64,000 bases of DNA. It comes from Microbacteriaceae bacterium. Its GTDB lineage: Bacteria; Actinomycetota; Actinomycetes; Actinomycetales; Microbacteriaceae. Under the pieces are notes generated by a model. It searched no databases and was not told the DNA's origin. It saw only the letters and a program-made list of their open reading frames with translations. Position numbers and translations under genes: made by a program. Below, piece after piece: positions 1 to 64,000 of the stretch. Location of the stretch: the NCBI GenBank assembly GCA_009780695.1, contig WQZN01000011.1:18456-82455 (forward strand), written 5' to 3'. Position 1 is the stretch's first letter. Each line of letters starts with the position of its first letter.

Positions 1-1399
1 GCTCGACGTGCGTCCACTGCGCCTTGCGGCCCGTCGTGATGTCGATGATCGACTTCACATAGACGAGGTCGAGGAACGCGGCGAAGAACAGCTCGGGGAA
101 GAGCGTCACCGCGAGCAGCCGCGCGCGCCAGCCGCCCTTCCAGACGGTCACGACGCGCTCGAGCATGAACACGAGGCCGATGCCGAGCCAGAACGGGAAC
201 CAGATCCACCGGTCGGCCGCGACGATCAGCACGAACATCGCGGCGAAGTACCCGAACAGCGCGACCACGCCGTAGCCGATGCCGATCTGCTGCGACCAGT
301 ACCGGAAGGTCTCGCGCGTCACCGAATAGGCGCCGATGTTCTCGAGCGCGCCGCGCTGCCACCGCATCCGCTGGTTCCACAGCGTCTTCCACGACGGCAT
401 GAGCTCGGTCACGACCGTGCACCCGGCGGGCGAGATCATGAGCGCGCCGAGGGACTTGAGGGCGATCGTCAGCTCGTTGTCCTCGGTGAGCGCGAGCGTG
501 TCGTAGACGTCTCCGGTGATGCCGGGGATCCGCGTGCCGCGCGACTCGGCGACGGTGCGCAGCGCCCGCGGCCGGAACAGCGAGGCCGTGCCGGTGAGCA
601 CGAAGACCTGGCCGCGGCGGCGCTTCAGGTCGCGCGAATAGCGCACGTACTCGTTGCGCTGGCACTGGCCGATCAGGCCGTGCCCCTCTTCGCCGTAGAA
701 CAGGCCGCCGACGGCCATGAGCCCGCGGTCCTCCGTGAAGCGGCGCTCGGCCTCGGCGAGGAAGCCGTCGTCGAGCTCGGTGTCGGCGTCCATGATCATC
801 AGGGTGTCGTTGTCGCCCTGGCCCGGCAGCACCCGCTTCAGCACCTGGTTGAGGCCGCCCGCCTTCTTCTTGTCGTTGTCGACGGTGACGAACACCTCGG
901 CGCCGCCCTCGACGGCCAGCTCGGGGGTGCGGTCGGTGCAGTTGTCGGCGACGACGATGATGCGGTCGGGCGGCCGAGACTGGGTCCACAGCGACCGCAG
1001 CGTGCCGGGCAGCGACGCCTCCTCGTTGTGCGCGGGCACCAGCACCGTGATGGTCACCGGGCCCGCGTAGACGCCGCGCGTCTCACCCATCACCACACGC
1101 GGCGAGAGCGGCAGGTGCTTCGCATCGAGCGAACGGCGATCGCGGGATGCCGTGCGGAACTCGACCAGCGCGACGGCCGCAGCGATGAGCAGGATCGCCG
1201 CCACCCCGAGCAGCAGCAGCCACGGCGTCGGCACGGTGCTGTTGAACAGGAAGTGCCAGGTGTTGAAGAGGATGCCCTCCTGCGGCGGCGCGAGACGCAG
1301 CCGCTGCATCGACACCGCGAGCCAGATCAGACCGCCGGCCACCGCCACGATGACGAGCACGACGATCCCGATCCAGCGCTGCAACCCCCACCGACCCAT
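1..1399 (-). CDS. Processive GT2 glycosyltransferase (PgaC/cellulose-synthase-like), runs off the window edge
   Basis: Absent from the ORF track; read manually. Two N-terminal TM segments, VLVPAHNEE, VVADNCTD, LTEDNE and QRMRW motifs. ATG 1399 lies 7 nt after TAGCAT (-10-like). Confidence 0.85.
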   Translation of the reverse strand, partial: MGRWGLQRWIGIVVLVIVAVAGGLIWLAVSMQRLRLAPPQEGILFNTWHFLFNSTVPTPWLLLLGVAAILLIAAAVALVEFRTASRDRRSLDAKHLPLSPRVVMGETRGVYAGPVTITVLVPAHNEEASLPGTLRSLWTQSRPPDRIIVVADNCTDRTPELAVEGGAEVFVTVDNDKKKAGGLNQVLKRVLPGQGDNDTLMIMDADTELDDGFLAEAERRFTEDRGLMAVGGLFYGEEGHGLIGQCQRNEYVRYSRDLKRRRGQVFVLTGTASLFRPRALRTVAESRGTRIPGITGDVYDTLALTEDNELTIALKSLGALMISPAGCTVVTELMPSWKTLWNQRMRWQRGALENIGAYSVTRETFRYWSQQIGIGYGVVALFGYFAAMFVLIVAADRWIWFPFWLGIGLVFMLERVVTVWKGGWRARLLAVTLFPELFFAAFLDLVYVKSIIDITTGRKAQWTHVE

Positions 1400-1431
1400 G
1401 CCCCACATGCTAGGTGGCGCGGGGCCGCGGA

Positions 1432-2511
1432 TCACTCCCCCGATTGCGGCGATGCGGGCGGCGCGGTCGAGCCGCGCACCTTGAGCTCGGTCGCCATGTC
1501 GATGCGCAGGTTCTCCTGCTCGCCGTAGTCCCGCTGGTGCAGCACGAGGTACATGGCCTGCTCGGCCATGTCGGCCGTCGGCTGGCGCACGGTCGTGAGC
1601 GGCGGCCCGACCCACGTGGCGACCGGCAGGTCGTCGTAGCCGACGACCGACAGCTCGTCGGGGATCGAGACGCCGAGCGACCGCGCCGCCTCGTAGACGC
1701 CGAGCGCCTGCAGGTCGCTCAACGCGAAGATCGCGCTCGGCGGCTCGGGCAGCGACAGCAGCTCGATGCCCGCGAAGATCCCCGCCTCGCGGCGGAACTC
1801 GCCCGTGACGACGTACGGGTCGGGCAGCTCGACGCCGGCGGCCTCGAGCGCCGAGCGGAAGCCCGAGAGCCGCGCCCGGGCCATGAGCATGTCCTCGGGG
1901 CCGGCGACGACGCCGATGCGCCGGTGCCCCAGGTCCAGCAGGTGCCGGGCGGCCTGCATGCCGCCCGACCAGTTCTGCGCGCCGACGGAGGGCACGTCCG
2001 GCGGCGGGTCGCCCGCGGGGTCGATGATCACGAACGGGATGTTGCGCACCCGCAGCTGCCGCCGCGACTCCTCGGGCAGGCCCGAGATGACGAGCACGAC
2101 GCCGGCGGGGCGCCGCTCCAGTGCGGCGTCGATCCAGTCGGCGCCCGGCTGGTTCCGGTCGCCGCTCTCGGTGACGACGATCGAGAGGCCGTTGGCCCGC
2201 GCGACGCGCTCGACGCCGCGGATCACCTCGAGACTCCACTCGGTGCCGAGCTCGCCGAACACGAGCTCGACGAGCGTCGAGACGTGCGCGGTGCCGCGGC
2301 GCAGATAGCCGTTCTCCTGCAGCAGCGCCTCGACGCGCGCACGCGTCTCCTCGCCGACTCCCCCGCGCCCGTTCAGCACCTTCGAGACCGTGGAGAGCGA
2401 GACGGATGCCTGATCGGCGATCACCTGCAGCGTCGCCCGTTCACCGCCGCCGCCCGTCGGGCCGGGCGCCACGCGGGCGCCCGGCTCGGCGGCATCCTCA
2501 GCAGGGCTCAC
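1432..2511 (-). CDS. LacI-family regulator (BxlR-like)
   Basis: HTH ATLQVIADQASVSLSTVSKVLNG; C-terminal SVVGYDD...PPLTTVRQP. Start re-assigned to GTG 2511. Confidence 0.9.
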   Translation of the reverse strand: MSPAEDAAEPGARVAPGPTGGGGERATLQVIADQASVSLSTVSKVLNGRGGVGEETRARVEALLQENGYLRRGTAHVSTLVELVFGELGTEWSLEVIRGVERVARANGLSIVVTESGDRNQPGADWIDAALERRPAGVVLVISGLPEESRRQLRVRNIPFVIIDPAGDPPPDVPSVGAQNWSGGMQAARHLLDLGHRRIGVVAGPEDMLMARARLSGFRSALEAAGVELPDPYVVTGEFRREAGIFAGIELLSLPEPPSAIFALSDLQALGVYEAARSLGVSIPDELSVVGYDDLPVATWVGPPLTTVRQPTADMAEQAMYLVLHQRDYGEQENLRIDMATELKVRGSTAPPASPQSGE

Positions 2512-2518
2512 ACAGCCC

Positions 2519-4370: not shown

Positions 4371-5375
4371 TCAGTTCTTCGTGCTGAACGCGGCGTCGAA
4401 GGCGGTGGCGGATGCCTCGAGCGCATGCTCGCGCACGAACGCCAGCGCCTCGGGCGCGCCCTTCAGACGGTCCATGCCGGCGTCCTCCCACTCGACCGAG
4501 AGCGGGCCCTCGTAGCCGATCGCGTTGAGCATGCGGAAGGCGTCCTCCCACGGCACGTCGCCGTGGCCGGTGTTGATGAAGTCCCAGCCGCGGCGCGGGT
4601 CGGCCCACGCGAGGTGCGACGACAGGCGGCCGTTGCGGCCGTTGAGTCGCTTCTTCGTGTCCTTGCAGTGCACGTGGAAGATGCGGTCCTGGAAGTCCCA
4701 CAGGAAGCCGACCGGGTCGAGGTCCTGCCACACCATGTGCGACGGGTCCCAGTTCAGCCCGAAGGACTCGCGGTGGCCGATGGCCTCGAGCGTCGCCTTG
4801 GTCGTCCAGTAGTCGTAGGCGATCTCGCTGGGGTGCGGCTCGAGGGCGAACTTCACGCCGACCTCGTCGAAGACGTCCATGATGGGGTTCCACCTGTCGG
4901 CGAAGTCCTGGTAGCCGGCATCCACCATCGCCTGCGAGGCCGGCGGGAACATCGCAACGTACTTCCAGATCGACGAGCCCGTGAAGCCGGTCACGACCTT
5001 CGCGCCGAGGCGGGCCGCGGCGCGCGCCGTGTTCTTCATCTCCTCGGCGGCGCGCTGCCGCACGCCCTCGGGGTCGCCGTCGCCCCACACCGAGTCGGGC
5101 AGGATGTCGCGGTGCCGCTGGTCGATCGGGTCGTCGCAGACGGCCTGGCCCTTGAGGTGGTTCGAGATCGCGAAGACCTCGAGGCCGTTCTTCTCGAGGA
5201 TCGCGAGCCTGTCGGCGACGTAGTCGTCGTCGACGGCCGCGCGGTTCGGGTCGAGGTGGTCGCCCCACGAGGCGATCTCGAGCCCGTCGTAGCCCCACTC
5301 GCCCGCGAGGCGCGCGACCTCTTCGAAGGGCAGGTCGGCCCACTGGCCGGTGAAGAGAGTGATCGGTCGTGCCAT
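4371..5375 (-). CDS. Sugar phosphate isomerase/epimerase (AP-endonuclease-2 TIM barrel, IolE-like)
   Basis: GYDGLEI, FALEPHP, NWDPSH, HVHCKD, LSVEWED metal-binding motifs. Confidence 0.9.
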
Positions 5376-5438: not shown

Positions 5439-6611
5439 CTAGGCGACCGGCGTGAACACGCCGTTGGCGCCCGCGGAGCGCTCCACGGCCGCGAGCACCT
5501 GCTGCACGCGCAGACCGTCGTCGAACGACGGCAGCGGCTGGCGCCCCTCGGCGATGTCGAACACGAGGTCGCGCACCTGGTGCGAGAACGCGTGCTCGTA
5601 GCCGAGGCCGTGGCCGGTCGGCCACCAGTTGGCCGTGTAGGGGTGCTCGGGCTCGGTGACGAAGATGCGGCGGAAGCCCTGCTCGCCCGCGGCGTCGGTG
5701 CCGTCGTAGAACTCGAGCTCGTTGAGCTTCTCGAGGTCGAAGACGATCGCGCCCTTCGAGCCGAAGATCTCGATCTTGAGGCCGTTCTTGCGGCCGGTCG
5801 CGTAGCGCGAGGCCTCGAACGAGACGACGGCCCCGCCCGAGAGCAGGCCGGTGAACCACGCGGCGTCGTCGACCGTGACCTCGCCCATCTCGTCGGACGC
5901 CGTGCCCGAGAGCCCGACGGTCTCGCCGAGCAGCGGGCGCTGCTTCACGAAGGTCGTCATGTGGCCCGAGACCTGCTCGACGGTCTGACCGGTGATGAAC
6001 TGCACCGAGTCGACCGCGTGCGCGCCGATGTCGCCGAGCGAGCCCGAGCCCGCGAGCTTCTTGTCGAGGCGCCACGTCATGGGGCCGTTCTCGTCGACGA
6101 GCCAGTCCTGCAGGTACGCGGCGCGCGCCTGGCGCACCTCGCCGATGCGGCCCGACTGCACGAGGTCGCGCGCGAAGGTGAGCGCGGGCACGCGGCGGTA
6201 GGAGAACCCGACCATCGAGCGGATGCCGTGCTCGGCGGCCTCGCGTGCGGCATCCGCCATCTCGCGCGCCTCGTCGACGGTGTTCGCGAGCGGCTTCTCG
6301 CACAGCACGTGCTTGCCCGCCTTGAGCGCCGCGATCGCGATCTCGGCGTGGGTCTCGCCCGAGGTGCAGACGTCGACCAGGTCGATGTCGTCGCGCGCGA
6401 TGACCGCGCGCCAGTCGGTGGACGCCTCGTTCCAGCCGTACTTCTCGGCGGCGGCCTGCGTCTTGGCGGCATCGCGCCCGACGATGACCGACATGACCGG
6501 GGTGAGGGGCAGGTCGAAGAAACGGTGCGCGACGCGGAAGGCCTGGCTGTGGGCGGCGCCCATGAAGCCGGTGCCGATCATGGCGACGCGAAGGGGCTGT
6601 GCAGTTGACAC
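5439..6611 (-). CDS. Gfo/Idh/MocA oxidoreductase
   Basis: [27 protein letters not shown]; AAGGAG RBS upstream of the GTG. Confidence 0.9.
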
Positions 6612-12875: not shown

Positions 12876-13837
12876 TCGATGTTCACCTTCTGGATCTGGC
12901 GGTACAGCACCACCGAGACGATCACGAGAACGATCGTCATGAGGAATGCGGTCGCGACACCAGGGCCGACCTGGTTGTTCTGGAACACGGACGAGTAGGC
13001 CTGGACGACGAGCGTCTGGGTCGCGTTGCTCGGACCGCCCGCGGTCAGAAGGAAGATGGTCGGGAAGTCGTTCACGCAGAAGATCGTCATGAGGATCCAG
13101 CTGACGTAGGTCGTGCGCGAGACCATCGGCAGGGTGATGCGCGTGAAGGTCTGCCAGGCGTTGGCGCCGTCGACACGGGATGCCTCGTAGACGTTGGTGT
13201 CCACCGAGGCGAGCGCCGAGCTCATCATCATCATCATGAACGGGAAGCTGATCCACACCTTGAAGATGCAGACCGTGACTCGGGCGAGCGTCGGGTCGGC
13301 GAGGAACAGGACGTTGCCGAAGCCGAGGGCGTGGGCGAGGACGGGAAGGGGCGACTGCGGCGTCGCGACCAGCCAGTTCCACGAGGTCGCCGACACGACG
13401 GTCGGGACGACCCACGGCAGAAGGAGCAGCACCTTCCACATCCCGTTGAGGGGGATGCGGGTGCGCAGCAGCAGCGCGAGGCCGAGGCCGACAGCCCAGC
13501 TGCCGAAGACGCCGACGACCGTGAAGACCAGGGTGAACAGCGCCGCAGTCCAGAACTGCGCCGACGTGAGGACCGACGCATAGTTCTGGAACCACACGAA
13601 GGGACCTGCGTTGACGAGGTCGCCGAAGTGCAGGGACTGCCACCCGGCGTAGATGACGGGGTAGAAGTTGAGCAGGAGCAGCAGCACCACGGACGGCAAG
13701 GCGAAAGCCAGGAACGTGCCGGTGAACTTAACCGCCTTGCCACGCTTCTTGGTCCCGCCGGGTGCACGCCCGGACCCGCTCACCCCTACGCCGTTGCGTG
13801 CCCGCTTGAGGGCCCCGCTGACGGTCTCGGTCGACAT
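12872..13837 (-). CDS. Carbohydrate ABC permease (MalF-type)
   Basis: YEASRVDGA loop, TAGGP; AAGGAG RBS. Confidence 0.9.
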   Translation of the reverse strand: MSTETVSGALKRARNGVGVSGSGRAPGGTKKRGKAVKFTGTFLAFALPSVVLLLLLNFYPVIYAGWQSLHFGDLVNAGPFVWFQNYASVLTSAQFWTAALFTLVFTVVGVFGSWAVGLGLALLLRTRIPLNGMWKVLLLLPWVVPTVVSATSWNWLVATPQSPLPVLAHALGFGNVLFLADPTLARVTVCIFKVWISFPFMMMMMSSALASVDTNVYEASRVDGANAWQTFTRITLPMVSRTTYVSWILMTIFCVNDFPTIFLLTAGGPSNATQTLVVQAYSSVFQNNQVGPGVATAFLMTIVLVIVSVVLYRQIQKVNIE

Positions 13838-13878
13838 TCAAGTACTCCTTTGTGGATGCTGGTGTGTAACAGGGGAAT

Positions 13879-13909
13879 GCGGGTGGGCCCGAGAAACGGG
13901 CCCACCCGC
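13879..13909. terminator. Intra-operon stem-loop after the substrate-binding-protein gene
   Basis: GCGGGTGGGCCCG-AGAAA-CGGGCCCACCCGC, perfect 13-bp stem. Confidence 0.7.
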
Positions 13910-13921
13910 GATTCACACCAT

Positions 13922-15259
13922 TTACTTCATCAGGCCTTCGAGCGTCGTCTGGAAGGCGGTCAGCATCTGCTTGGCCGTCTGACGGTTGCTCGGGGTGAGG
14001 ACCTGCTGCGCGAAGGTGTAGGTCGGCTGGGTGCCGTCCACCGTGTTCGCGACGTTGAAGAAGACACCCGAGTTGCCCGGGGCGCCCCACGTCTTGAAGA
14101 TGCCCGGGGTCACCCAGTCCTGGATGATCTTCTGGTTGTTCGGGTCACCGGAGACGGTCGGGTCGTTCGCGATCGACTTGAGCGGCGGGAGGCCGATGCC
14201 GGTCTTCTGCGTCCAGAGCGGAGCCATGTTCTGGTAGTAGTACGTGATGAGGTCCTGGTTCGCCGTCTTCGACGGGGTGTTGTTCCACATCATCATCGGG
14301 TTCGGGAAGTACAGGAAGCCCTTGTTGCCGCTGGGGCTGGTGAGCGGGTCGGCGACCGCGACCTCGCTCGAGACGGCGCCGGTCACGTTGGCCGCCATGC
14401 CGGCGGTGTCGATGCCGTAGGCGATCTTGTGGTTCTGCCACTGCGTGTACACGTTCTGGTTGGTGTACGTCGACGAGGCCGGGTCCGAGTAGCCCTGGCG
14501 GACGAGCTCGAGCACGAAGTCGAGCGCTTCCTCGTTGGCCGCGGTGTCCGCAGCGGGCTTCTGGTTGCTGTCGAACCAGCCGCCGCCGTTGTTGATCATG
14601 AAGCCGGTGATGGCGTGGAAGCCGATGTTGTTACCGGCACCCGAGCCGACACCGAAGCCGTAGATGCCCTTGGTCTTCAGCGTGGCGCAGACGGTCTTGT
14701 ACTCGTCCCACGTGGTGGGGATCTGGAGGCCGTACTGGGTGAACAGCTTCTTGTTGTACCAAGCCGGACGGACGTCGAGGTTGTAGGGAACACCGGTGGT
14801 GCCCTCGGTCGTCTTCAGCGCGTCGAGCATGCCCGGCAGGAAGTCGTCCTTCAGGCCGTTGGTGGTCCAGGCGCCGTTGATCAGGTCGTCCATGTACTGG
14901 ATCTTGCCGTCGTGGGCGTAGAGCACCGAGGTGGTGCCACCGCCCGAGCTGACGGCCGGGCCGGTGTTCGACGACGCACCGGTCGCGAACTGGGTGGTGA
15001 AGTTCGCCCACTGGATCTGCTGGTAGGACGCGGTGAAGCCGCCCTTCTTGAAGCCAGCGATGATCTTCTTGTCCTCGGTCAGGAACGCCGGGGTGCCCCA
15101 CGGCATGTTCCAGAACTTCAGAACCCCACCCGAGGCGTTGCCGCCACCGGTGCTGCCACCCGTGCGGGTGCAAGCGGCGAGGAGGGTGGTGGCCGCAATA
15201 CCGCCGGCGGCACCGATGAACGCGCGCCGCGTGAAAGCGGCACCCGACTGCTGTGTCAT
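13922..15259 (-). CDS. Sugar ABC substrate-binding lipoprotein (Tat-type signal)
   Basis: TRRAFIG twin-arginine motif, LAAC lipobox, WYNKKLF, PTTWDE. Confidence 0.9.
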   Translation of the reverse strand: MTQQSGAAFTRRAFIGAAGGIAATTLLAACTRTGGSTGGGNASGGVLKFWNMPWGTPAFLTEDKKIIAGFKKGGFTASYQQIQWANFTTQFATGASSNTGPAVSSGGGTTSVLYAHDGKIQYMDDLINGAWTTNGLKDDFLPGMLDALKTTEGTTGVPYNLDVRPAWYNKKLFTQYGLQIPTTWDEYKTVCATLKTKGIYGFGVGSGAGNNIGFHAITGFMINNGGGWFDSNQKPAADTAANEEALDFVLELVRQGYSDPASSTYTNQNVYTQWQNHKIAYGIDTAGMAANVTGAVSSEVAVADPLTSPSGNKGFLYFPNPMMMWNNTPSKTANQDLITYYYQNMAPLWTQKTGIGLPPLKSIANDPTVSGDPNNQKIIQDWVTPGIFKTWGAPGNSGVFFNVANTVDGTQPTYTFAQQVLTPSNRQTAKQMLTAFQTTLEGLMK

Positions 15260-15356
15260 CAGTCGATCCTTCCGTCCCGTCTTGGTACGGGACATTTGCT
15301 CTTCGTTGAACAAAAAGTTTCCGAGCAGGTCTCGGGTGTCACGGAGTGACGAGGCC

Positions 15357-15386
15357 ATTTTTAGCTGGGGTGATCAGGGATGTCAA
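15357..15386 (-). promoter_or_regulatory. SigA-like promoter for the ABC operon
   Basis: TTGACA-N17-TAAAAA(T) on the minus strand. Confidence 0.5.
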
Positions 15387-15496
15387 TGTGAGCCACATGG
15401 GTGGCGACACTGGCTCCGAAGCGCCCACGAGCACCCCTTTTGGGGGTGAACGGTTTGCCGATCCCCTGGTCAGGAAGGATTTCCAGACCCGGAAAC

Positions 15497-15525
15497 TAAC
15501 CGGTTCAGTTACTGAACCGCTTCAG
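15497..15525. promoter_or_regulatory. Tandem LacI-type operators
   Basis: TAACCGGTTCA and CTGAACCGCTTCAG, both CG-centred palindromes. Confidence 0.6.
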
Positions 15526-15734
15526 AAATAGTACATGATCCGCAATCCCGCCAGGACTCCCCGTTCGGAGGCACAAGGCAGGAAACTTTTCGTGCCAATC
15601 TTCGCATACTTTCGAAGCGGGTGAGGAAAACAGCGCATCAGGGCAGAAAAACCACGCGGCGCGCCGGGCGGATGTCCCACCCGACGCGCCGCGTCGCGGG
15701 CCGTGCTGGGGCGCACGGCACCGTTGTGAATTCG

Positions 15735-18161
15735 TTAGCCGTTCGAGACCGAAACCCCGACCACACGGGCGTCGGCGAGCGTCACCGCGTACTTCTCGCC
15801 CGTCAGGGCGACGGTCTTGCGCGGCGTCGCCGCGCCGCCCAGGTCGCGCACGGCGGCCTTCTTGTCGTTGACGATGGCTCCGCCCGTCGAGTCCTCCACG
15901 GCGTCGTCCTTGGCGGGCGCGATGCCCGCGTGGGCGGCCACCCAGAGCTCGACGTCGCCCGGCTCGACGACCTTGGTCATCGAGCGGTCGGTGAACGCGA
16001 AGCGCGCCGTCGGAACGGTGAAGCTCACCCGTGCCGATGCGCCGGCCTCGAGCTCGACGCGGGCGTAGCCCACGAGGAACTCCGTCGGGCGCACGATCGA
16101 GCCGTGCACGTCGTGGCCGTAGAGCTGCACGACGTCGGCGCCGGCGCGCTCGCCCGTGTTGCTGACGGTGACCGACGCCGTGAGCACGCCGCCCGCGGCG
16201 ACGGCGCTCTCGACCTCGAGCGCGCTGTAGGCGAAGGAGGTGTAGCCGAGGCCGTAGCCGAAGGGGCGCGTCGGGGTCGAGTCGGTCGACGTGACATCCG
16301 ACGAGCCGCCGAGGATCGGGTGGCTGTAGGTGTACGGCTGCGCGCCGGTCGAGCGCGGCATCGAGACGGGCAGGCGACCCGAGGGGTTCGCCGCGCCCGT
16401 GATGACGTCGGCGATCGCGAGGCCGCCGCCCTCGCCCGGGAAGAAGGCCTGCAGCACCGCGGCGGGCTTGGCGCCCGCGCCGTCGAGCGCCCACGCGACC
16501 GCGTAGGGGCGCCCGGTCAGCAGCACGAGCACGGTCGGGGTGCCCGTCGCGACGACGGCCTCGACCAGCTCGCGCTGCACGCCGGGCAGCTCGAGCGACT
16601 CGGCGTCGTTGCCCTCGCCGACCGTGCCGCGGCCGAAGAGGCCGGCCTGGTCGCCGACGACGACGATCGCGACGTCGGCGGATGCCGCGGCATCCGTCGC
16701 CTCGGCGAAGCCCGACGTGTCGGCGCTCTCGTTGTCCGAGCCCGCGGCGAAGACGAGCTCGGGCACGGCCGCGTCGGCGCCCGCGAACGCCTGCGGCAGC
16801 GCCTCGAAGACGGTCGGGATCTCGAAGCCCAGCTCGTAGCCCGGGTGGTGCGCGAGCACGTGGTTCGCGAACGAATAGCAGCCCTGCAGCGCCTCGGCGC
16901 GGTGGGCGTTCGGGCCGATCACGGCGACCTTGGCGGGCGCGGCGAGGGGCAGCACGCCGTCGTTGGAGAGCAGCACGATGGACTCCTCGGCGAGCTTGCG
17001 CGCGAGGCGCTGGTGCTCGGGCGAGTCGAGGTCGATGTCGGTCGGCGGCTCGTCCTCGTAGACGTCGGGCTCGAGCAGGCCGAGCTCCTCCTTCTGGCGC
17101 AGGAAGCGCAGCACGGCGCGGTCGACGTAGGCCTCGTCGAACTCGCCCGCGCGAATGCGGTTCGCGAGCGGCTCGAGGTAGGCGTCGCCCGTGGGCAGCT
17201 CGATGTCGATGCCCGCCGTGAGCGCGAGCGCCGCGGCCTCGCCGCGGTCGGCGGCGACGGCGTGCATGACCTCGAGGAACGCGACCGCGAAGTAGTCGGC
17301 GACCACCACGCCGTCGAAGCCGAGCCGCTCGCGCAGCACGTCGGTCAGGTACTCCTCGTGGGCGGCCATCGGGATGCCGTCGACGTCGACGTACGCGTTC
17401 ATCACGCTCTTGACGCCGCCGTCGGCGATCGCCATCTCGAACGGCGGCAGATAGCGGTCGGCGACCTCGCGCGGCCCGGCGAAGACCGGCGCATGGTTGC
17501 GGCCGGCGCGCGAGCGCGAGTAGCCGACGAAGTGCTTCAGGGTCGCGTGGATGCCCTCCGACTGCAGGCCCTTCACATACGCGGTGCCGACGGTGCCGAC
17601 GAGGTACGGGTCCTCGCCGATGCACTCGTCGACGCGGCCCCAGCGCGGGTCCGAGATCACGTCGACGACGGGCGCGAGGCCCTGGTGGATGCCGAGCTGG
17701 GCCATCGACCTGCCGATTGCGGCGCCGACCTCCTCGACGAGCTCGGGGTCGAAGGACGCGCCCCAGGCGAGCGGCGTCGGGAACGTCGCTGCCTTCCACG
17801 CGGCGAGGCCGGTGAGGCACTCCTCGTGCACGAGCGCGGGGATGCCGAGGCGGGTCTCGCGCTTGAGGCGGCGCTGCTCGTTCCACAGCCACGCGGCACG
17901 GTCGGCCGGCTCCACCGGGCGGGTGCCGTACACACGGGTGTACTGGCCGAGGCCGTCCTTCGTGATGTCCGAGAGCTCCTCGCTGCCCTTCTGCCCGGCG
18001 GACATCTCACCCTGCATGGGGGCGACGACGCCGTTCTGATCGAGCCAGTAGCCGACGAGCTGAGCCAGCTTCTCCTCGAGGGTCATCTGTGCGTGCAGTG
18101 CCGCGACTCGTTCCGAGACGATCGGCATCGCGGCGGGAGCGCCGCCTTCGGTGGTGGTCAT
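15735..18161 (-). CDS. GH3 beta-xylosidase/beta-glucosidase (BxlA-like, cytoplasmic)
   Basis: MTLEEK, HEECLTG, DPRWGR, ATLKHF, VVADY nucleophile, FGYGLGYT, FnIII-like tail; no signal peptide. Confidence 0.92.
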   Translation of the reverse strand: MTTTEGGAPAAMPIVSERVAALHAQMTLEEKLAQLVGYWLDQNGVVAPMQGEMSAGQKGSEELSDITKDGLGQYTRVYGTRPVEPADRAAWLWNEQRRLKRETRLGIPALVHEECLTGLAAWKAATFPTPLAWGASFDPELVEEVGAAIGRSMAQLGIHQGLAPVVDVISDPRWGRVDECIGEDPYLVGTVGTAYVKGLQSEGIHATLKHFVGYSRSRAGRNHAPVFAGPREVADRYLPPFEMAIADGGVKSVMNAYVDVDGIPMAAHEEYLTDVLRERLGFDGVVVADYFAVAFLEVMHAVAADRGEAAALALTAGIDIELPTGDAYLEPLANRIRAGEFDEAYVDRAVLRFLRQKEELGLLEPDVYEDEPPTDIDLDSPEHQRLARKLAEESIVLLSNDGVLPLAAPAKVAVIGPNAHRAEALQGCYSFANHVLAHHPGYELGFEIPTVFEALPQAFAGADAAVPELVFAAGSDNESADTSGFAEATDAAASADVAIVVVGDQAGLFGRGTVGEGNDAESLELPGVQRELVEAVVATGTPTVLVLLTGRPYAVAWALDGAGAKPAAVLQAFFPGEGGGLAIADVITGAANPSGRLPVSMPRSTGAQPYTYSHPILGGSSDVTSTDSTPTRPFGYGLGYTSFAYSALEVESAVAAGGVLTASVTVSNTGERAGADVVQLYGHDVHGSIVRPTEFLVGYARVELEAGASARVSFTVPTARFAFTDRSMTKVVEPGDVELWVAAHAGIAPAKDDAVEDSTGGAIVNDKKAAVRDLGGAATPRKTVALTGEKYAVTLADARVVGVSVSNG

Positions 18162-19472: not shown

Positions 19473-20738
19473 ATGCAGCTTGCGTCCTGTCGCGCAGAAC
19501 AGCCCGCCCACCGGCTCGGCGATGCCGTCGTCACCGTGACGGATGCCACGGGCGAACCCCTGCGCGACGCCGAGGTGACCGTCGCCCAGACGCGCCACGC
19601 CTTCGGCTTCGGCAACATCGGCTTCGACTTCATCGGCTACGCGAACGGGGCCGGGCGCGAGGGCGACGCCGAGCTCGCCGAGGCGTACACCGAGCTGTTC
19701 AACTGGGCGACGCTCCCCTTCTACTGGGGGCGCTTCGAGCCCGAGCGCGGGCGCCCCGACACGGCCCGGCTCAGGAAGACCGCCGAGTGGTTCCGGTCTC
19801 AGGGGGTCGCCCTGAAGGGGCATCCGCTCGTCTGGCACACGGTCCAGCCGCCGTGGCTGCTCGGGCTGCCGCTCGATGAGGTCGAGAGGCTGCAGCGCGA
19901 GCGCATCCGCCGCGACGTCGCCGACTTCGCGGGCCTCATCGACACGTGGGACGCGATCAACGAGGCCGTGATCATGCCGGTCTTCGACAACGGCGACAAC
20001 GCGATCACACCGCTCGCGCGGGCCAGGGGCCGCATCCCGATGATCCGCATGGCCTTCGAAGAGGCGCGCGCGACGAACCCGGCCGCGACGCTGCTGATCA
20101 ACGACTTCGACCTGTCGAGCGCATACGAGTGCCTGATCGAGGGCGTGCTCGAGGCCGGCATCCGCATCGACGCCATCGGGCTGCAGACGCACATGCACCA
20201 GGGCTACTGGGGCGAGGACACGATGCTCGCCATGGTCGACCGCTTCGCGCGCTACGGCCTGCCGCTGCACCTCACCGAGAACTCGCTCGTGTCGGGCCAC
20301 ATCATGCCGGCCGACGTCGTCGACCTGAACGACTACCGGATCCCCTCCTGGCCGTCGACGGACGAGGGCGAGGCGCGGCAGGCCGCCGAGCTGGCGCGCC
20401 ACTACAGCTCCCTCGTCGGGCATCCCGCCGTCGAGTCGATCACCTATTGGGGCATCACGGATGCCGGCGCCTGGCTCGGCGCGCCGATCGGGCTCGTGCG
20501 CGCCGACGGCTCGCGCAAGCCCGCGCACGCCGCCTTGAAGGCACTGATCAAGGGCGATTGGTGGCTGCCGCGGACCGTGCTGCGCACGGATGCGGAGGGC
20601 CGCTTCGGCCTGCGTGGATTCGCGGGGGATTACGAGGTCGGGGCCACTGGAAGTTCCGCGCGATCCGCGATATGTTTATCGCAACAACAAAATCAATCTG
20701 TCCACCTCACCATGGAAGTTGAAGGGCAAATCCAATGA
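19473..20738 (+). CDS. GH10 endo-xylanase-like protein (no signal peptide)
   Basis: [14 protein letters not shown] acid/base, LLIND, IGLQTH, LHLTE nucleophile. Confidence 0.85.
20670..20693. promoter_or_regulatory. Putative ROK/XylR-type operator upstream of xylA
   Basis: AT-rich imperfect inverted repeat ATATGTT...AACAAAAT about 40 nt before xylA. Confidence 0.45.
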
Positions 20739-24520: not shown

Positions 24521-25633
24521 CTAGAAGCGCTGCGCGAGAGCGCGGCCCGCGGCCTCGGCCCAGAGGGCGGGCTCGGCGAGCGCGGCATCCGACGACCCGG
24601 CGAGGTCCGAGAGCGACACCGCAGCGGCGAAGGCGGTGGTCGGGGCCTGGATCGCCCCCGCGGCGAGCGCGACCGGCACCCCTGCCGCCGCGGCGAGCGC
24701 GGCCACATGGGTCGGCGCCTTGCCCGCCTCGGACTGGCCGTCGAAGCGTCCCTCCCCCGTGATGACGAGGTCGGCGCCCGCGATCGTGTCGGCGAGCCCG
24801 ATGGCGGATGCCACGGCCGGCGCCCCCGGCGAGAGCTCGGCGCCCCACGCGAGCAGCCCGAAGGCCGAGCCGCCGGCGGCGCCGGCCCCGGGCGTCTCGG
24901 CGAGCACGGCACCGTTCGGCACCGCGGCGGCGAGACGCGCGAGGTTCGCGTCGAGGGCGCGGGTCGCGACCTCCGACGTCGCGCCCTTCTGCGGGCCGAA
25001 GACCGCGGCCGCGCCGCGCGGCCCGAGCAGCGGGTTGTCGACATCCGTCAGCACCACCGCACCGGCCGGCGGCAGCGGCACCACGTCGGCGAACGACACG
25101 TTCGCCACCACGCCCGCGCCGAGATTGCCGTGCGCGACGGGGGCGCCCGAGGCATCCGTCAGCCGCGCCCCCATCGCCGTCAGCGCGCCCACGCCGCCGT
25201 CGGTCGAGGCGCTGCCGCCGACCGCGATCAGCAGCCGCGAGACGCCGAGCGTCACGGCCGCCGTGATCGCCTGGCCGAGACCGAAGGTGTGCGCGTCGAA
25301 GGGCCGCAGGCCCGAGCGCATGAGCGTGATGCCGCTCGTCGCGGCGAGTTCGACGACGCCCGTGCCGCCGGGCAGCTCGGGGGTGGGCGGCAGCAGCAGC
25401 CAGTGCGTGAGCACCGGCTGATCGTCGGGGCCGACCACCATCACGGGCTCACGGCGCGCGCCGGGCACGGCGGCCTCGAAGGCGTCGAGACTGCCCTCGC
25501 CGCCGTCGGCCATCGGCTCGAGCACGATCTCGTCACCCGGGCGCTCGGCGAGCCACCCGGCCCGCAGCGCCTCTGCGACCTCGCGGGCCGTGAGCGTGCC
25601 TTTGAACGAGTCCGGGGCGATGACGACGCGCAT
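24521..25633 (-). CDS. glxK: Glycerate kinase (GlxK family)
   Basis: IAPDSFKG, PMADGGEG, GGSASTDGG, DVDNPLLG, VFGPQKGA, TGEGRFD. Confidence 0.92.
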   Translation of the reverse strand: MRVVIAPDSFKGTLTAREVAEALRAGWLAERPGDEIVLEPMADGGEGSLDAFEAAVPGARREPVMVVGPDDQPVLTHWLLLPPTPELPGGTGVVELAATSGITLMRSGLRPFDAHTFGLGQAITAAVTLGVSRLLIAVGGSASTDGGVGALTAMGARLTDASGAPVAHGNLGAGVVANVSFADVVPLPPAGAVVLTDVDNPLLGPRGAAAVFGPQKGATSEVATRALDANLARLAAAVPNGAVLAETPGAGAAGGSAFGLLAWGAELSPGAPAVASAIGLADTIAGADLVITGEGRFDGQSEAGKAPTHVAALAAAAGVPVALAAGAIQAPTTAFAAAVSLSDLAGSSDAALAEPALWAEAAGRALAQRF

Positions 25634-46546: not shown

Positions 46547-47755
46547 CTAACCACGCACGACCAGCACGACCAGCACGACGTTCAACGCGATGATGCCGGC
46601 CGCGACGACCCACGCGATCGCACGGGTCGCCGGGCGATCCGCATGCTCGCCCATCACGTCGCGCGAGCCCGTGAGCCGCAGCAGCGGAATGAGGGCGAAG
46701 GGGATGCCGAGCGACAGCACGACCTGGCTGACGACCAGTGCCCAGGTCGGGTCGACCCCCAGCGCCAGCAGCGCGAGGGCGGGCAGCAGGGTCGCGGCCC
46801 GGCGCACGAGCACGGGCACGCGCACCTTGAGCAGCGCGCCCATGACGACCGCGCCGGCGTACGAGCCCACCGAGCTCGACGCGAGCCCCGAGGCGAGCAA
46901 GCCGATGGCGAAGGCCGCGCCCACCACCGGCCCGAGCGCGGCGACGACCGCGGCATGCGCCCCGGGAATGGTGTCCGCCGAGTGCATGCCGCGCAAGGCA
47001 TCCGCCGCGAGCACCAGCATCGCGATGTTGACGACGCCCGCGATGCTGAGCGCGACGACGACGTCGACGCGGTTCGCAGCGAGGACCGCCGCGCGGTGCC
47101 TGCTCGATTTGTCGGTGCGGTGCCGGTCGCGTGAGAGCGCCGAGTGGAGATATACCGCGTGCGGCATGACGGTGGCACCGAGCATGGATGCCGCGAGCAC
47201 CACCGTCTCGCTGCCGTCGAACCGCGGCATCAGACCGCCCGCGAAGCCGCCCCAGTCGACGGGTGAGGCGCCGGCCCCGATCACGAAGCCGACGGCGATC
47301 ACGGCGAGCAGAGCCATGACGGCGAACTCGAAGCGCCGCTGTCCGCGCGTCTGCAGGCCCAGCAGCACGATCGAGGCGAGGCCGACGACGAGGCCCCCGA
47401 TCACGAGCGGAACGCGGAACAGCAGTTGCAGGGCGATCGCGCCGCCGATCACCTCGGCGAGATCGGTCGCCGCCGCGACGATCTCGGCCTGCGCCCAGAA
47501 CGCGAGTCGTGCGGGTCGGCCCATCCGCTCGGCGAGCAGCTCGGGCAGGCTCTTCCCCGTGACGATGCCGAGCTTCGCCGAGAGGTACTGCACGAGCATC
47601 GCCATGAGGTTCGCGAGCACGAGCACCCAGAGCAGCAGGAAGCCGTAGCGGGCGCCCGCGGTGACGTTGGCGGCGACATTGCCGGGGTCGACGTAGGCGA
47701 TGGATGCCACGAACGCGGGCCCGAGCAGCGAGATCAGTCGCCGCCACCCCTTCAT
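46547..47755 (-). CDS. mntH: Nramp Mn2+/Fe2+ transporter
   Basis: AYVDPGN, LSAKLG, GATVMPHAVYLHS, SQVVLS. Confidence 0.93.
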   Translation of the reverse strand: MKGWRRLISLLGPAFVASIAYVDPGNVAANVTAGARYGFLLLWVLVLANLMAMLVQYLSAKLGIVTGKSLPELLAERMGRPARLAFWAQAEIVAAATDLAEVIGGAIALQLLFRVPLVIGGLVVGLASIVLLGLQTRGQRRFEFAVMALLAVIAVGFVIGAGASPVDWGGFAGGLMPRFDGSETVVLAASMLGATVMPHAVYLHSALSRDRHRTDKSSRHRAAVLAANRVDVVVALSIAGVVNIAMLVLAADALRGMHSADTIPGAHAAVVAALGPVVGAAFAIGLLASGLASSSVGSYAGAVVMGALLKVRVPVLVRRAATLLPALALLALGVDPTWALVVSQVVLSLGIPFALIPLLRLTGSRDVMGEHADRPATRAIAWVVAAGIIALNVVLVVLVVRG

Positions 47756-47777
47756 GGCTCCAGTATCTCCGCCGGTG

Positions 47778-50542: not shown

Positions 50543-52504
50543 CTACTCGACCGCCGGCAGCGTCAGCTCCGCCTGCTGCAGGTACAGCCCGGCGTAGACG
50601 CCGCCGAGCGCGAGCAGCTCGGCGTGCGTGCCCTGTTCGACGAGCCTGCCGCCGTCGATGACGAAGATGACGTCGGCACCGACGATGGTCGAGAGCCGGT
50701 GCGCGATCGCGATGGTGGTGCGACCGGATGACGCGGAGTCCAGCGCCTGCTGCACGACCCGCTCCGAGACCGTGTCGAGCGCGCTCGTGGCCTCATCGAG
50801 GATCAGCACCTCGGGGTCCTTCAGCAGCACCCGCGCGATCGCGATGCGCTGCTTCTCGCCGCCGGAGAGCCGGTAGCCGCGCTCGCCCACGAGCGTCTCG
50901 TAGCCGTCGGGGAACGACGCGATCGTGTCGTGGATGTTGGCCGCGCGACAGGCCGCCTCGAGCTCGGCGTCCGTCGCGCCGGGGCGCGCGTAGCGCAGGT
51001 TCTCGGCGATCGAGGCGTGGAACAGATAGGTCTCCTGGCTGACGACGCCGATGTGCGAGACGAGCGACTCGCCGCGCAGCTCGCGCACATCCCGGCCCGC
51101 GAAGCGGACGGCGCCCGAGGATGCCTCGTAGAAGCGCGGCACGAGGTATGACACGGTCGTCTTCCCCGCCCCCGACGGCCCGACGAAGGCGGCGAACCGG
51201 CCCGGCTCGATGCGGAACGAGACGTCGTCGAGGGTCGCGCGCTCCCCCGGTTTCGCATCCGGATAGCGGAACACGACGTGATCGAACTCGATGCCGATCG
51301 GCTTGCGCGTGGTCGCCGCCCCTGCGTCCACTGGTCGGCTGAGGCCGCCCCCGCCGGCCGAGCACTCCTCCTCCGCAGCGCTCACGCTCACGGCATCCGC
51401 CCGGTCCGCGATCGCGGGCTTCAGATCGAGGTACTCGAAGATGCGCGCGAACAGCGCACCGGAGGTCTGCAGGTCGAGCGCCAGCCGCAGCAGCCCCATG
51501 AGCGGGAACAGCAGCCGCGCCTGCACCGTGGTGAACGCGACGATCGTGCCGGCCGTGACATCCTGCGCGCCGCCGAGGATCAGCCAGCCCGCGATCAGGT
51601 ACACGATCGCCGGAATCGACGACAGGAAGACCTGCACCATCGCGAAGAACCACTGGCCGCTCATCGACTGCCGCACCTGCAGGTCGATCAGGTTGGCGTT
51701 CTCGTCCGAGTAACGCGCGATCTCGCTCTTCTGCCGGTTGAACGACTTGGAGAGCAGGACACCCGAGACCGACAGCGTCTCCTGTGTGATCGCCGTCATG
51801 TCCGACAGGCTCTCCTGCGTGGCGGTGGCGATCCGCGCGCGCACCTGGCCGACGCGCCGCTGCGCGATCACGAGCAGCGGCATGAGTACGATCGCGACGA
51901 CCGTGAGCTGCCAGCTCAGCAGAAGCATCGCGGCGAAGGCGGCGATCACCTGCACGGTGTTGCCGAGCACGCTCGAGATCGTGTTGGTGAGCACGTTCGC
52001 GACACCGCCGACGTCGTTCTGCAGGCGCGACTGGATCACACCGGTCTTCGTGCGGGTGAAGAAGCTGAGCTCCATGGCCTGCAGATGGCTGAAGAGCCGC
52101 ACTCTGAGGGCGCCCATGACGCTGTTGCCGACGGATGCCGTGAGCCAGGTCTGCCAGACGCCGATCAGCCCCGACACCACATAGAGCACGGTCATGGCGA
52201 CGACGAGCGAGACGAGCACCGGCACGTCGATGCGCCCCGCCCTCGGGAACAGCCCGTCGTCGAAGACCCGCTGCGTGAGCAGCGGCGGCACGACGCTCAG
52301 CGCCGCGGAGATCAGCACGAGGACGACCGTGACCGCGAGCTTTCCGCGGTACGGCCGGAACAGGCCGCCGATGCGCCGCACGAGATGGTCGATCTTGGGC
52401 GCCTGCGCGTTGATCGCGCGCTGCGCCCGGTGGTCCCCGCCGCTGATCCGGCCGCCGTGACCGCCTCCGCCGCGGCCGCCCGCACCCCGCCCCATTCCGC
52501 TCAC
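50543..52504 (-). CDS. ABC exporter, fused permease/ATPase
   Basis: TM domain, GPSGAGKT, LSGGEKQR, ILDEAT. Confidence 0.93.
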   Translation of the reverse strand: MSGMGRGAGGRGGGGHGGRISGGDHRAQRAINAQAPKIDHLVRRIGGLFRPYRGKLAVTVVLVLISAALSVVPPLLTQRVFDDGLFPRAGRIDVPVLVSLVVAMTVLYVVSGLIGVWQTWLTASVGNSVMGALRVRLFSHLQAMELSFFTRTKTGVIQSRLQNDVGGVANVLTNTISSVLGNTVQVIAAFAAMLLLSWQLTVVAIVLMPLLVIAQRRVGQVRARIATATQESLSDMTAITQETLSVSGVLLSKSFNRQKSEIARYSDENANLIDLQVRQSMSGQWFFAMVQVFLSSIPAIVYLIAGWLILGGAQDVTAGTIVAFTTVQARLLFPLMGLLRLALDLQTSGALFARIFEYLDLKPAIADRADAVSVSAAEEECSAGGGGLSRPVDAGAATTRKPIGIEFDHVVFRYPDAKPGERATLDDVSFRIEPGRFAAFVGPSGAGKTTVSYLVPRFYEASSGAVRFAGRDVRELRGESLVSHIGVVSQETYLFHASIAENLRYARPGATDAELEAACRAANIHDTIASFPDGYETLVGERGYRLSGGEKQRIAIARVLLKDPEVLILDEATSALDTVSERVVQQALDSASSGRTTIAIAHRLSTIVGADVIFVIDGGRLVEQGTHAELLALGGVYAGLYLQQAELTLPAVE

Positions 52505-52532
52505 GTTCACAGGCTAGGCCCCGGGTGAAGCA

Positions 52533-53965: not shown

Positions 53966-53972
53966 GCGCACG

Positions 53973-63250: not shown

Positions 63251-63282
63251 TCTGCTGATTATCCGCCCGAGGTTCCGAGCGC

Positions 63283-63311
63283 CCTATGGCGAAATTATGT
63301 CTTAGCTGTGA
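63283..63311 (-). promoter_or_regulatory. Putative OmpR-family autoregulatory direct repeats
   Basis: TCACAGC-N4-ACATAAT-N4-CCATAGG with 11-bp period. Confidence 0.45.
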
Positions 63312-63383
63312 ACCGCGCCCCGGGTGTGTGAGCGACGGCCGAAGGCCTTGTCTCGGAACCCGTTGAATCAGGTCGAGGATGCC

Positions 63384-64000
63384 TTACTGCTGCCCGATGT
63401 CGTGCAGCACCTGGCGCATGGCGTCCGCGCTGCGGTGGAACGCCGCGTGTTCCGATTCGTCCATCGTCACCGGCAGCACCCGCTCCACGCCTCCCGCGCC
63501 GAGCACGCACGGCACCGACAGCGCGACGCCGTCCACGCCCTCGTAGTTCCGCAGCCGCGTCGTGACGGGGGCGATCATGTGCTCGTCGCGCAGAACCGCC
63601 TCGACCAGGCGCACGCCCGCGAGTCCGATGGCGTAGTTCGTGGCGCCCTTGCCGGCGATGATGGCGTAGGCCGACTGCACCGCCTGGCTCGCGAGATCGG
63701 CGAGCCGGGCGTCGTCGAAGATCTTGGCTCCGGTCTCGTCCGTCCATGCGCGGATGGGCGAGCCGCCGATGAGCGCATTCGACCACAGCGGGAACTCGCT
63801 GTCGCCGTGCTCGCCGAGGATCATCGCCGTGACATCGCGCGGTGCGATGCCGGCCGCCTCCGCCACGAGCCAGCGCAGCCGCGCCGAGTCGAGCTCGGTG
63901 CCCGAGCCGAACACCTGGCCGCGACGCAGGCCGGCGACGTCCTCGGCCACGACGGTCAGCACGTCGACCGGGTTGGTGACGATGATGTACACGGCGTCGG
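63384..64000 (-). CDS. ldh: L-lactate dehydrogenase, 5' part outside the window
   Basis: VTNPVD, GSGTELDSARL, LGEHGDSE, KGATNYAIG. Confidence 0.9.
   Translation of the reverse strand, partial: DAVYIIVTNPVDVLTVVAEDVAGLRRGQVFGSGTELDSARLRWLVAEAAGIAPRDVTAMILGEHGDSEFPLWSNALIGGSPIRAWTDETGAKIFDDARLADLASQAVQSAYAIIAGKGATNYAIGLAGVRLVEAVLRDEHMIAPVTTRLRNYEGVDGVALSVPCVLGAGGVERVLPVTMDESEHAAFHRSADAMRQVLHDIGQQ

Follow-up and report, generated by a model that had tools for sequence, protein, structure and literature searches.

GGATGYC, a highly iterated and strand-wise spaced heptamer of Gryllotalpicola and other Microbacteriaceae, as a candidate recognition word of a DNA-handling protein

Introduction

To our knowledge, the genome-wide recognition words that are understood are few and include Chi, the DNA uptake sequences and uptake signal sequences (DUS/USS), and the FtsK orienting polar sequences (KOPS); the highly iterated palindrome HIP1 is unsolved, and we know of none in Actinobacteria. 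Likewise, we know of no control sequence or Chi for AdnAB, the main actinobacterial enzyme of end resection. Chi is GCTGGTGG in E. coli, where it is read by RecC, and is represented by 5-7-mers read by AddAB in Firmicutes. The known uptake receptors read duplex DNA regardless of orientation, on fragments that are kilobases long. Type IIS restriction enzymes, with sites such as GGATG (FokI, StsI, BtsCI) and GGATC (AlwI), bind as monomers, act on one side of the site and dimerise head to head. The subject of this paper is the heptamer GGATGCC (reverse complement GGCATCC), which pervades a stretch of 64,000 nucleotides from a Microbacteriaceae genome (contig WQZN01000011.1, positions 18,456 to 82,455), called the window hereafter. 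The systems with which it may be compared include the DUS of Neisseriaceae, which has the core GCCGTCTGAA, occurs in dialects and has the minor pilin ComP as its reader (PMC3868556), and the USS of Pasteurellaceae (PMC2817400).

No paper describing GGATGCC as a genomic motif was found in the literature. In its workings it resembles the ‘self’ words known elsewhere in bacteria, yet for none of Chi, KOPS, HIP1 and DUS/USS does it show the full set of defining traits. On balance, we lean slightly towards the view that GGATGYC (Y being C or T) is the recognition word of a vertically inherited, sequence-specific DNA-handling protein, which reads it one strand or one direction at a time. An original prediction, made from the letters of the window, had described GGATGCC as an iterated motif of the HIP1 or DUS kind; added here are a dicodon test, spacing controls with their caveat, a 74:2 polarity in hairpins, a fixed pair geometry with an 8-bp spacer (N8), the dialects and a set of readers that were ruled out.

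Genomes and null models

The source genome (G000) is a draft of 2.95 Mb in 41 contigs, with 70.5% GC and 86% completeness. By protein similarity the organism is a Gryllotalpicola (Microbacteriaceae, Micrococcales), a window protein matching G. kribbensis at 81% and G. ginsengisoli at 78%. The DNA of relatives was sampled at 200-400 kb, which makes for small samples. Because nulls built on single letters or dinucleotides have little power in a genome this rich in GC, where TCGTCGA and similar plain codon words reach 16 times the mononucleotide expectation and many codon-type 7-mers 10-16 times, codon-aware nulls were used. The synonymous-codon shuffle (30 rounds genome-wide) keeps each protein and the codon usage of each gene, and the dicodon null takes its expected counts from a first-order Markov chain of codons, a model so built that it absorbs most of the signal of a 7-mer. 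Perfect hairpins were defined by a stem of at least 9 bp and a loop of at most 10 nt.

Abundance and strand balance

GGATGCC and GGCATCC together occur 89 times in the window (57 on the + strand and 32 on the - strand), as against 13.5 ± 3.5 in dinucleotide-preserving shuffles, of which the largest value was 23. This agrees well with the original prediction of about 80-90 copies against about 15 expected, and all the sites that it had named are present (1145, 2404, 2491, 6221, 8251, 19541, 25151, 27301, 35811, 47702 and 52133). The window also holds 34 copies of GGATGTC/GACATCC. Genome-wide, GGATGCC has 4,498 copies in 2.95 Mb (2245 forward, 2253 reverse), that is about 1.5 per kb, with an order-3 Markov ratio of observed to expected (O/E) of 5.2; GGATGTC has 1,733, bringing the two to 6,231. 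Among the 21 one-letter neighbours of GGATGCC, GGATGTC is the sole other strongly enriched one and none is specifically drained, the depletion of GGAGGCC, GGACGCC, GGATCCC and GGATGGC being part of a general avoidance of GGAG- and GGAC-type words. Since GGATGTC behaves like GGATGCC in same-strand spacing and in mutual depletion, GGATGYC is taken as the working word.

GGATGCC is not palindromic, that is, it differs from its own reverse complement. Its flanks hold at most 0.14 bit, the commonest letters being C at -1 (52%) and G directly after the word (54%), and the usual context is cGGATGYCg. A GC skew surrounds the word, the 30 nt on its 5' side being G-rich (+0.07 to +0.13) and the 30 nt on its 3' side C-rich (-0.04 to -0.07) and slightly higher in GC; it is present in nearly all coding classes and in intergenic DNA, and absent around control words. 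With flanks this poor in information and 73% of its copies in coding DNA, GGATGCC is not part of a repeat of the repetitive extragenic palindrome or miniature inverted-repeat transposable element type. Nor were word clusters, which could have pointed to a loading region or to the gene of a reader, found in the genome, besides an array of five GGCATCC units in tandem with 7-bp spacing (G000 C6, about 120,590-120,625), which is its only true word cluster.

The excess on the + strand of the window reflects no intrinsic polarity, as the 57:32 split arises because genes total 29.6 kb on the - strand and 14.0 kb on the + strand; the sense strand encodes GGCATCC somewhat more easily (59:41). Similarly, on contig C2, the genes of which run mostly in one direction, the sense fraction is 0.60 in + genes and 0.58 in - genes, and the local strand skew of GGATGCC tracks gene orientation (Spearman -0.53). 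Forward and reverse copies are balanced in 100-400 kb stretches of six family genomes. Neither these stretches nor the draft genome gave any sign of replication polarity of the Chi or KOPS type, and a replication-polar word was ruled out, the local skew following gene orientation only.

Codon choice and intergenic DNA

An abundant 7-mer in a genome of 70% GC might be an artefact of codon or dipeptide usage, such as GGC-ATC for Gly-Ile. The GGC-ATC-C class, written in preferred codons, does account for 879 coding copies genome-wide, and 15 window copies are of this ordinary Gly-Ile kind, as the original prediction had allowed; moreover, dinucleotide shuffles are a poor null for such words. GGATGCC is, however, the top 7-mer under the synonymous shuffle, with 3,270 coding copies against 969 ± 22 (O/E 3.37, z 107). 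Loss of the enrichment under a dicodon-preserving null had been named beforehand as the outcome that would speak against the word, and the enrichment persists: GGATGCC is still the top outlier (3,270 against 1,692, O/E 1.93, z 38) and exceeds expectation 1.4- to 3.2-fold in each of the six frames, the runner-up being GGATGTC (z 18). The GGC-ATC-C class is 1.4-fold and the nGG-CAT-CCn frame 3.1-fold enriched under this null. Within the coding DNA of the window there are 60 copies, while 300 synonymous shuffles gave 15.2 ± 2.6 with a maximum of 22.

The copies are dominated by rare codons. Of all Asp codons 14% are GAT, and of all Ala codons 5% are GCA, yet the largest coding classes of the genome are nnG-GAT-GCC (1,131) and nnG-GCA-TCC (910); in the window, 24 copies are of the former kind, 16 of the latter, 4 lie in other frames and 30 outside the crude gene set. 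The choice of the rare codon depends on the preceding letter. Where the codon before it ends in G, Asp-Ala is written GAT-GCC in 1,131 cases and GAC-GCC in 493, as against 213 and 1,467 where it ends in C; likewise, Ala-Ser is written GCA-TCC 910 times after a G-ending codon and 54 times after a C-ending one, and in the former setting 37% of all Ala-Ser pairs have GCA. Hence the rare codon is chosen only where the heptamer is completed, and the override of codon preference that the original prediction had proposed is borne out by these context-specific counts.

The 704 short intergenic gaps (70 kb in total) hold 156 copies of GGATGCC, where models of order 0-2 trained on the gaps expect 15-17 (O/E about 10), and the word is the second commonest 7-mer in them. 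Its density there is 2.2 per kb overall and 3.0 per kb in convergent gaps. Since intergenic gaps are enriched, translation cannot drive the word; the force acts at the DNA level on the whole 7-mer and overrides codon bias. Together with the presence of families of like GC and codon usage that lack the word, these results leave practically no credence to the codon and dipeptide artefact, which is rejected. In the tandem gaps between co-oriented genes, the word is antisense in 54 cases and sense in 27, an excess that could come from avoidance of GGAUG (a Shine-Dalgarno-like sequence plus AUG) in 5' leaders.

Spacing along one strand

The distances between copies depend on orientation. For GGATGCC, the ratio of observed to expected pairs of the same orientation is 0.31 at 7-60 nt, 0.42 at 60-100 nt, 0.52 at 100-150 nt, 0.75 at 150-200 nt, 0.79 at 200-300 nt and about 0.9 at 300-600 nt, reaching 1.0 beyond 600 nt, while pairs of opposite orientation stay at about 1.0 beyond 30 nt. 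Fifteen control 7-mers of like abundance give same-orientation ratios of 1.0-1.7, as gene structure predicts. GGATGTC has a same-orientation deficit of its own (0.26-0.56) and is depleted near GGATGCC on the same strand (0.46), most other neighbours being near 1. The gaps between GGATGYC copies on one strand average 932 nt with a coefficient of variation of 0.83, against 1.08-1.16 for controls, and gaps below 200 nt and those of 3.2-6.4 kb are both under-represented. Hence, within about 200 nt of a copy, further copies on its own strand are much rarer, and copies on the opposite strand are not.

The window follows the same rule, with 5 same-strand pairs at 8-200 nt against 12.9 expected and 11 opposite-strand pairs against 11.0. 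The same-strand deficit is likewise found in genomes G005, G007, G009 and G012, which cover two congeners (0.55 and 0.24), genus g2 (0.67) and the dialect genus g5 (0.54). Window words that are conserved in congeners have a same-strand neighbour within 250 nt in a fraction of 0.13, compared with 0.33 at random positions.

Close pairs and hairpins

Within 30 bp of each other, 153 pairs are convergent (GGATGCC then GGCATCC) and 13 divergent, where about 51 of each are expected, and at distances of up to 20 bp the divergent pairs fall short of expectation. The spacers of the convergent pairs peak sharply at N8 (73 pairs), with lesser peaks at N9 (16) and N2 (15); N5 and N11, though in the same reading frame, have about one case each, and N5 would make a good hairpin loop. 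The N8 spacer is perfectly palindromic in 22 of the 73 pairs, mostly as CCGGCCGG (10) or TCGGCCGA (7). Inside genes, 46 of 51 N8 pairs read Asp-Ala-x-x-x-Ala-Ser, at any position along the gene. The two inverted pairs that the original prediction had pointed out in the window, 16680/16689 and 38989/39004, are real.

GGATGCC is also the commonest 5'-arm 7-mer among 857 perfect hairpins (74 cases), GGCATCC occupying the 5' arm in 2. Because both arrangements are the same duplex of equal stability, this polarity belongs to the reading or making of the word and not to thermodynamics. A degenerate partner downstream of single words was considered and rejected: with one mismatch allowed, N8, N9 and N3 each gain no more than about 35 sites, so that most words are solitary.

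The pair geometry could suggest that the word is bound by an abundant protein of duplex DNA, architectural or regulatory and akin to nucleoid-associated proteins, with a monomer on the heptamer and a head-to-head dimer on N8. The preference for N8 over N5 and N11, which would give equally good or better hairpins, is consistent with such a protein, as are the depletion of close divergent pairs, as if footprints clashed, and the weak asymmetry of the flanks, G-rich 5' and C-rich 3', in nearly every coding class and in intergenic DNA. Redundancy that is confined to the same orientation and extends to about 200 nt is nevertheless left unexplained, and paired sites are less than 5% of all copies; this explanation is quite unlikely.

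Some palindromes of other kinds involve the word. A 38-bp perfect palindrome, GTGGGGCATATCGGATGCC|GGCATCCGATATGCCCCAC, contains a word pair without spacer and has 5 copies in G000 (0-based positions of the central GGATGCC C1:391645, 392857 and 394368, C2:340255 and C12:62936); it adjoins genes of MerR- and HxlR-family regulators, an aldo-keto reductase, an alcohol dehydrogenase and a hydrolase, and probably serves a small stress regulon as an operator of the MerR type. In genera with a dialect of the word (see below), the word often overlaps its own complement, giving the 10-bp palindrome CAGGATCCTG (14 copies in 200 kb of G070, C1:100001-300000) and the 8-bp palindrome AGGATCCT (18 copies in 400 kb of G012, C2:1000001-1400000). 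These self-overlapping palindromes are another route to head-to-head pairs than the N8 form of Gryllotalpicola.

Distribution, dialects and conservation

Among 21 relatives, the density of GGATGCC is 0.4-1.5 per kb in the genus, 0.27-0.97 per kb in other genera of the family and about 0.2 per kb in eight other families, a reversed-word control being at about 0.1 per kb. Across 121 genomes from 101 genera of Microbacteriaceae it ranges from 0.08 to 1.9 per kb, and about half of them exceed the control more than 5-fold. The word is weak in Clavibacter, Curtobacterium, Leucobacter and Frigoribacterium (2.2-3.7 times the control), and G. ginsengisoli has it at 8.7 times.

Several genera carry a related word. 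In genus g5, GGATGCC is at expectation (92 against 90 in 400 kb) and the top word is GGATCCT, with 367 copies in 400 kb (O/E 4.7, z 33) and C at -1 in 65%. GATCCTG reaches 0.87 per kb in genus g63, and genus g68 has GCGGATC and GTGGATC (GYGGATC). GGATCCT is high only in g5, g63, g48 and g74 among the 121 genomes, all four of which are low in GGATGCC, and (C)GGAT is common to all the dialect words.

No comparable word was found in five other families of the order, which show ordinary codon-type words only (O/E about 2). In other families of the order, the 8-mers CGACGGCG (227 copies in 200 kb, order-3 O/E 4.2) and CGACGCCG (191 copies in 200 kb, O/E 3.4), from G020 and G014, stand out under a Markov null that is not codon-aware; they have the look of codon words, with same-strand ratios of 0.87 and 0.61. 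In G013 (C1:1000001-1400000, 73% GC), ATGCAAT/ATTGCAT occurs 47 times in 400 kb (order-3 O/E 63), with the overlapping GATTGCA and CAATCCC, most likely as part of a dispersed repeat.

Three congeners align to about 49 kb of the window, with 82-83% identity. GGATGCC is kept in them at 28 of 65, 32 of 64 and 30 of 62 positions, where other 7-mers of equal codon phase would predict about 20, even though most of the words use rare codons. Five phages of Microbacterium hosts, which belong to another genus of the family (accessions from PMC7302621), have a density that is 2-3 times lower than in hosts rich in the word and close to the 0.45 per kb expected of host genes on codon grounds.

Such a distribution invites comparison with a DNA uptake signal of the DUS/USS type, in which word-bearing DNA is preferentially taken up or retained and the word spreads by uptake and recombination (molecular drive). 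The occurrence at about 1.5 per kb on both strands without polarity, the peak in convergent gaps, the inverted pairs at hairpin tips, the genus dialects and the poverty of phages relative to hosts would all suit this explanation, and so would the even spacing, one word per fragment being enough. A ComEC gene is present too, but ComEC is near-universal and its presence says little. The redundancy is, moreover, strand-specific and short-ranged (about 200 nt), which does not match receptors that read kilobase-long duplex fragments in either orientation, and no natural competence or DNA receptor is reported for Microbacteriaceae in the literature found. Uptake is hence an unlikely explanation, though some weight is left to it.

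Candidate readers

RecBCD was ruled out as the reader, RecC (PF04257) being found in none of 13 family genomes and in 4 of 8 other families; a link between the lack of RecC and the possession of a word was also rejected, as RecC-less genomes of three other families have no comparable word. An AdnAB-like pair is present as two adjacent long open reading frames (ORFs) with PD-(D/E)XK nuclease domains, and ComEC is encoded in the genome. FokI and AlwI domains gave no match in the genome, and the control genomes were silent too, which makes this search uninformative.

The only DNA methylase found in the genome is a complete Type ISP restriction-modification enzyme of 1,582 aa, the sole N6-methylase match, which comprises an Mrr nuclease, an SF2 helicase, a coupler, an N6 methylase and a Type_ISP_C specificity domain (Table 1). 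Such enzymes read asymmetric 6-7-mers and act head to head, which made it an attractive candidate; its specificity domain is, however, sporadic, occurring in 2 of 9 members of the genus and scattered elsewhere, and therefore it cannot be the family-wide reader. The gene lies in a defence island (G000 C1, about 330.1-337.2 kb; L004:2137-9246, - strand), followed by that of a 783-aa AAA_13 / PADLOC PDC-S06 ATPase.

These searches bear on the possibility that the word is a functionless by-product of a sequence-specific bias in mutation or repair, either methylation-linked very short patch (VSP) repair, as proposed for HIP1, or a context-dependent mismatch endonuclease. A bias of this sort is compatible with the grading across genera (0.08 to 1.9 per kb), the partial enrichment in phages of such hosts and the presence of the word in all frames and in non-coding DNA. 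No C5 (PF00145), N4/N6 beta-class (PF01555) or Dam-type (PF02086) methylase and no Vsr (PF03852) was found in the 86%-complete genome, however, which rejects methylation with VSP repair; the sole methylase is the sporadic Type ISP enzyme, and no one-letter neighbour is specifically drained. Moreover, a site-by-site bias predicts independent sites and thus leaves the avoidance, the even spacing and the pair geometry unexplained. The bias explanation is therefore very unlikely. Of what the original prediction had inferred, namely a HIP1- or DUS-like iterated motif maintained at the level of DNA, the upkeep at the DNA level stood, given the dicodon null, the intergenic density and the codon override; the methylation-linked repair that it had offered as one option is disfavoured, in view of the missing methylases and Vsr and of a Type ISP enzyme present in 2 of 9 genus members.

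Comparison with described systems and proposed mechanism

GGATGCC resembles DUS/USS in being a short word, present about once per kb on both strands, placed in genes at a coding cost, enriched intergenically, arranged in inverted pairs at hairpin tips, evenly spaced, restricted to one family and split into genus-level dialects. It differs in its length of only 7 bp, its strand-specific short-range redundancy and its fixed head-to-head N8 geometry, and Microbacteriaceae are not known to have competence, an uptake bias or a receptor. With Chi, it shares the form of an asymmetric, over-represented 5-8-mer with taxon-specific variants. Chi is read on one strand by a tracking enzyme, and a saturable, orientation-dependent action of that kind would explain the same-strand redundancy, from which alone we infer an orientation-dependent action of GGATGCC. 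Unlike Chi, GGATGCC lacks co-orientation with replication, has about 5-10 times the density of E. coli Chi and occurs in a family in which RecC was not found; its hairpin pairs are not a Chi trait. Of the enzymes that read Chi, neither RecBCD nor AddAB was found, only the AdnAB-like pair being present.

HIP1 of cyanobacteria (GCGATCGC) is similarly hyper-abundant, overrides codon choice, lies in genes and spacers and has no known reader or function, but it is a palindrome with resident methylases, whereas GGATGCC is asymmetric and no matching methylase was found. KOPS, the SpoIIIE recognition sequences (SRS) and other skewed ‘architecture’ octamers are asymmetric words, as GGATGCC is, that are read directionally by a translocase (FtsK or SpoIIIE); KOPS and SRS are strongly skewed to the leading strand and point to dif, whereas GGATGCC is balanced in every 100-400 kb stretch examined. 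The cores GGATG and GGATC of the dialects match the 5-bp sites of Type IIS enzymes, which is a lead only, and restriction sites are normally avoided and not enriched.

Among known systems, the two orientations count as separate channels only for those that read a single strand or a single direction, namely single-strand transfer, nick-directed repair and the helicase-nucleases that work at DNA ends. Spacing by strand, pair geometry and genus dialects point to a protein reader that acts along one strand of a word found about once per 0.9-1.3 kb per strand, in all six gene frames and more densely between genes. Transcription is an unlikely setting because the sense and antisense classes are similarly enriched, and replication because there is no polarity. 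A protein probably reads the word as a ‘self’ tag comparable to those of Neisseria, Haemophilus and E. coli. It would bind the word asymmetrically and then act or track in one direction, with an action that may be saturable over about 200 nt along one strand, and a nearby second word of the same orientation would add nothing. Weak selection or a recombination-linked drive would keep the word in place, and the specificity of the protein would drift between genera.

As the concrete process, a Chi-like signal for the processing of DNA ends or of incoming single strands is preferred, though tentatively and well short of conviction. Its setting here is an AdnAB-type two-subunit helicase-nuclease and ComEC, with no RecBCD found in the genome, and both orientations would be needed everywhere, in balance, if most breaks are two-ended. 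The reader could be the AdnAB end-processing machine, a single-strand uptake factor or a RecA-loading factor. It is possible, at somewhat less than an even chance, that this is the first strand-read ‘self’ word system in Actinobacteria, in which a family-conserved protein reads cGGATGYC or the dialects GGATCCT, GATCCTG and GYGGATC, acts over about 200 nt and pairs head to head at 8 bp.

Several observations weigh against a strand-reading protein. No reader of GGATGCC was found among the candidates examined, and a replication skew of the kind known for E. coli Chi is absent, in a draft of 41 contigs with unmapped replichores. The crude gene set consists of 1,913 ORFs picked by GC content at third codon positions, spanning 73% of the genome. 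The same-strand deficit persists in part when codons are shuffled synonymously with the proteins kept, with ratios of 0.62 (8-60 nt) and 0.77 (60-150 nt) against 0.24 and 0.42 in real coding DNA; because some of the spacing is thus written into amino-acid sequences, the net effect is about 2-2.5-fold and not 3-4-fold. Compensatory turnover was not seen in the congeners, since a same-strand word is no commoner near a lost word than at random (0.33 in both cases). The five Microbacterium phages carry GGATGCC at an intermediate density of 0.35-0.72 per kb, and phage Zeta1847 has 27 copies against 9-15 from Markov models, with 6 of the rare-codon class against 1.1 ± 1.0; a mutation or repair bias imposed by the host would also yield such an enrichment.

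If a strand-reading protein does recognise GGATGYC, it would constitute a Chi- or DUS-like system without replication polarity, in a group without known Chi or uptake sequences. A word with such influence on codons, with dialects and with strand-wise spacing must have a reader that influences genome evolution. The dialects are a natural experiment for finding it, by covariation or by gene swaps between genera. In practice, the word can also serve to tell native from foreign DNA in Microbacteriaceae, and it may matter in the design of DNA that transforms or survives in them.

Examples in the window

Representative copies from each coding class are collected in Table 1, with the two head-to-head pairs and the Type ISP gene.

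Table 1. Positions of selected words, word pairs and related features (window coordinates unless a contig of G000 is named)
Feature	Position	Strand	Gene or remark
nnG-GAT-GCC (Asp-Ala, rare GAT)	19541..19547	+	gene 19473-20735 (+)
nnG-GAT-GCC	25151..25157	-	sense strand of gene 24524-25651 (-)
nnG-GAT-GCC	2491..2497	-	sense strand of gene 1435-2709 (-)
nnG-GCA-TCC (Ala-Ser, 5% codon GCA)	2404..2410	+	read on sense strand of gene 1435-2709 (-)
nnG-GCA-TCC	47702..47708	+	Nramp transporter gene 46550-48079 (-)
nnG-GCA-TCC	52133..52139	+	ABC transporter gene 50546-52510 (-)
GGC-ATC-C (Gly-Ile, preferred codons)	6221..6227	+	gene 5442-6611 (-)
nGG-CAT-CCn (rare His CAT), minor frame	35811..35817	+	gene 35402-36481 (-)
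GGATGTC variant	5102..5108	+	
Head-to-head N8 pair GGATGCC-CCGGCCGA-GGCATCC	38989..39010 (C11 57443)		near-perfect 22-bp palindrome, outside predicted genes; the one N8 pair of the window
Head-to-head N2 pair GGATGCC-GC-GGCATCC	16680..16695		in GH3 glycosidase gene 15738-18161 (-); reads Asp-Ala and Ala-Ser
Longest GGATGCC-free stretch, 3.5 kb	13185..16679		GGATGTC at 15378, 15670 and 16293 inside
Type ISP enzyme	G000 C1, about 332.5-337.2 kb		outside the window

The longest GGATGCC-free stretch is overlapped by the part of the window with the lowest GC (12001-16000, 64.4% against about 71%), which includes two genes of solute-binding proteins and may be more recently acquired DNA.

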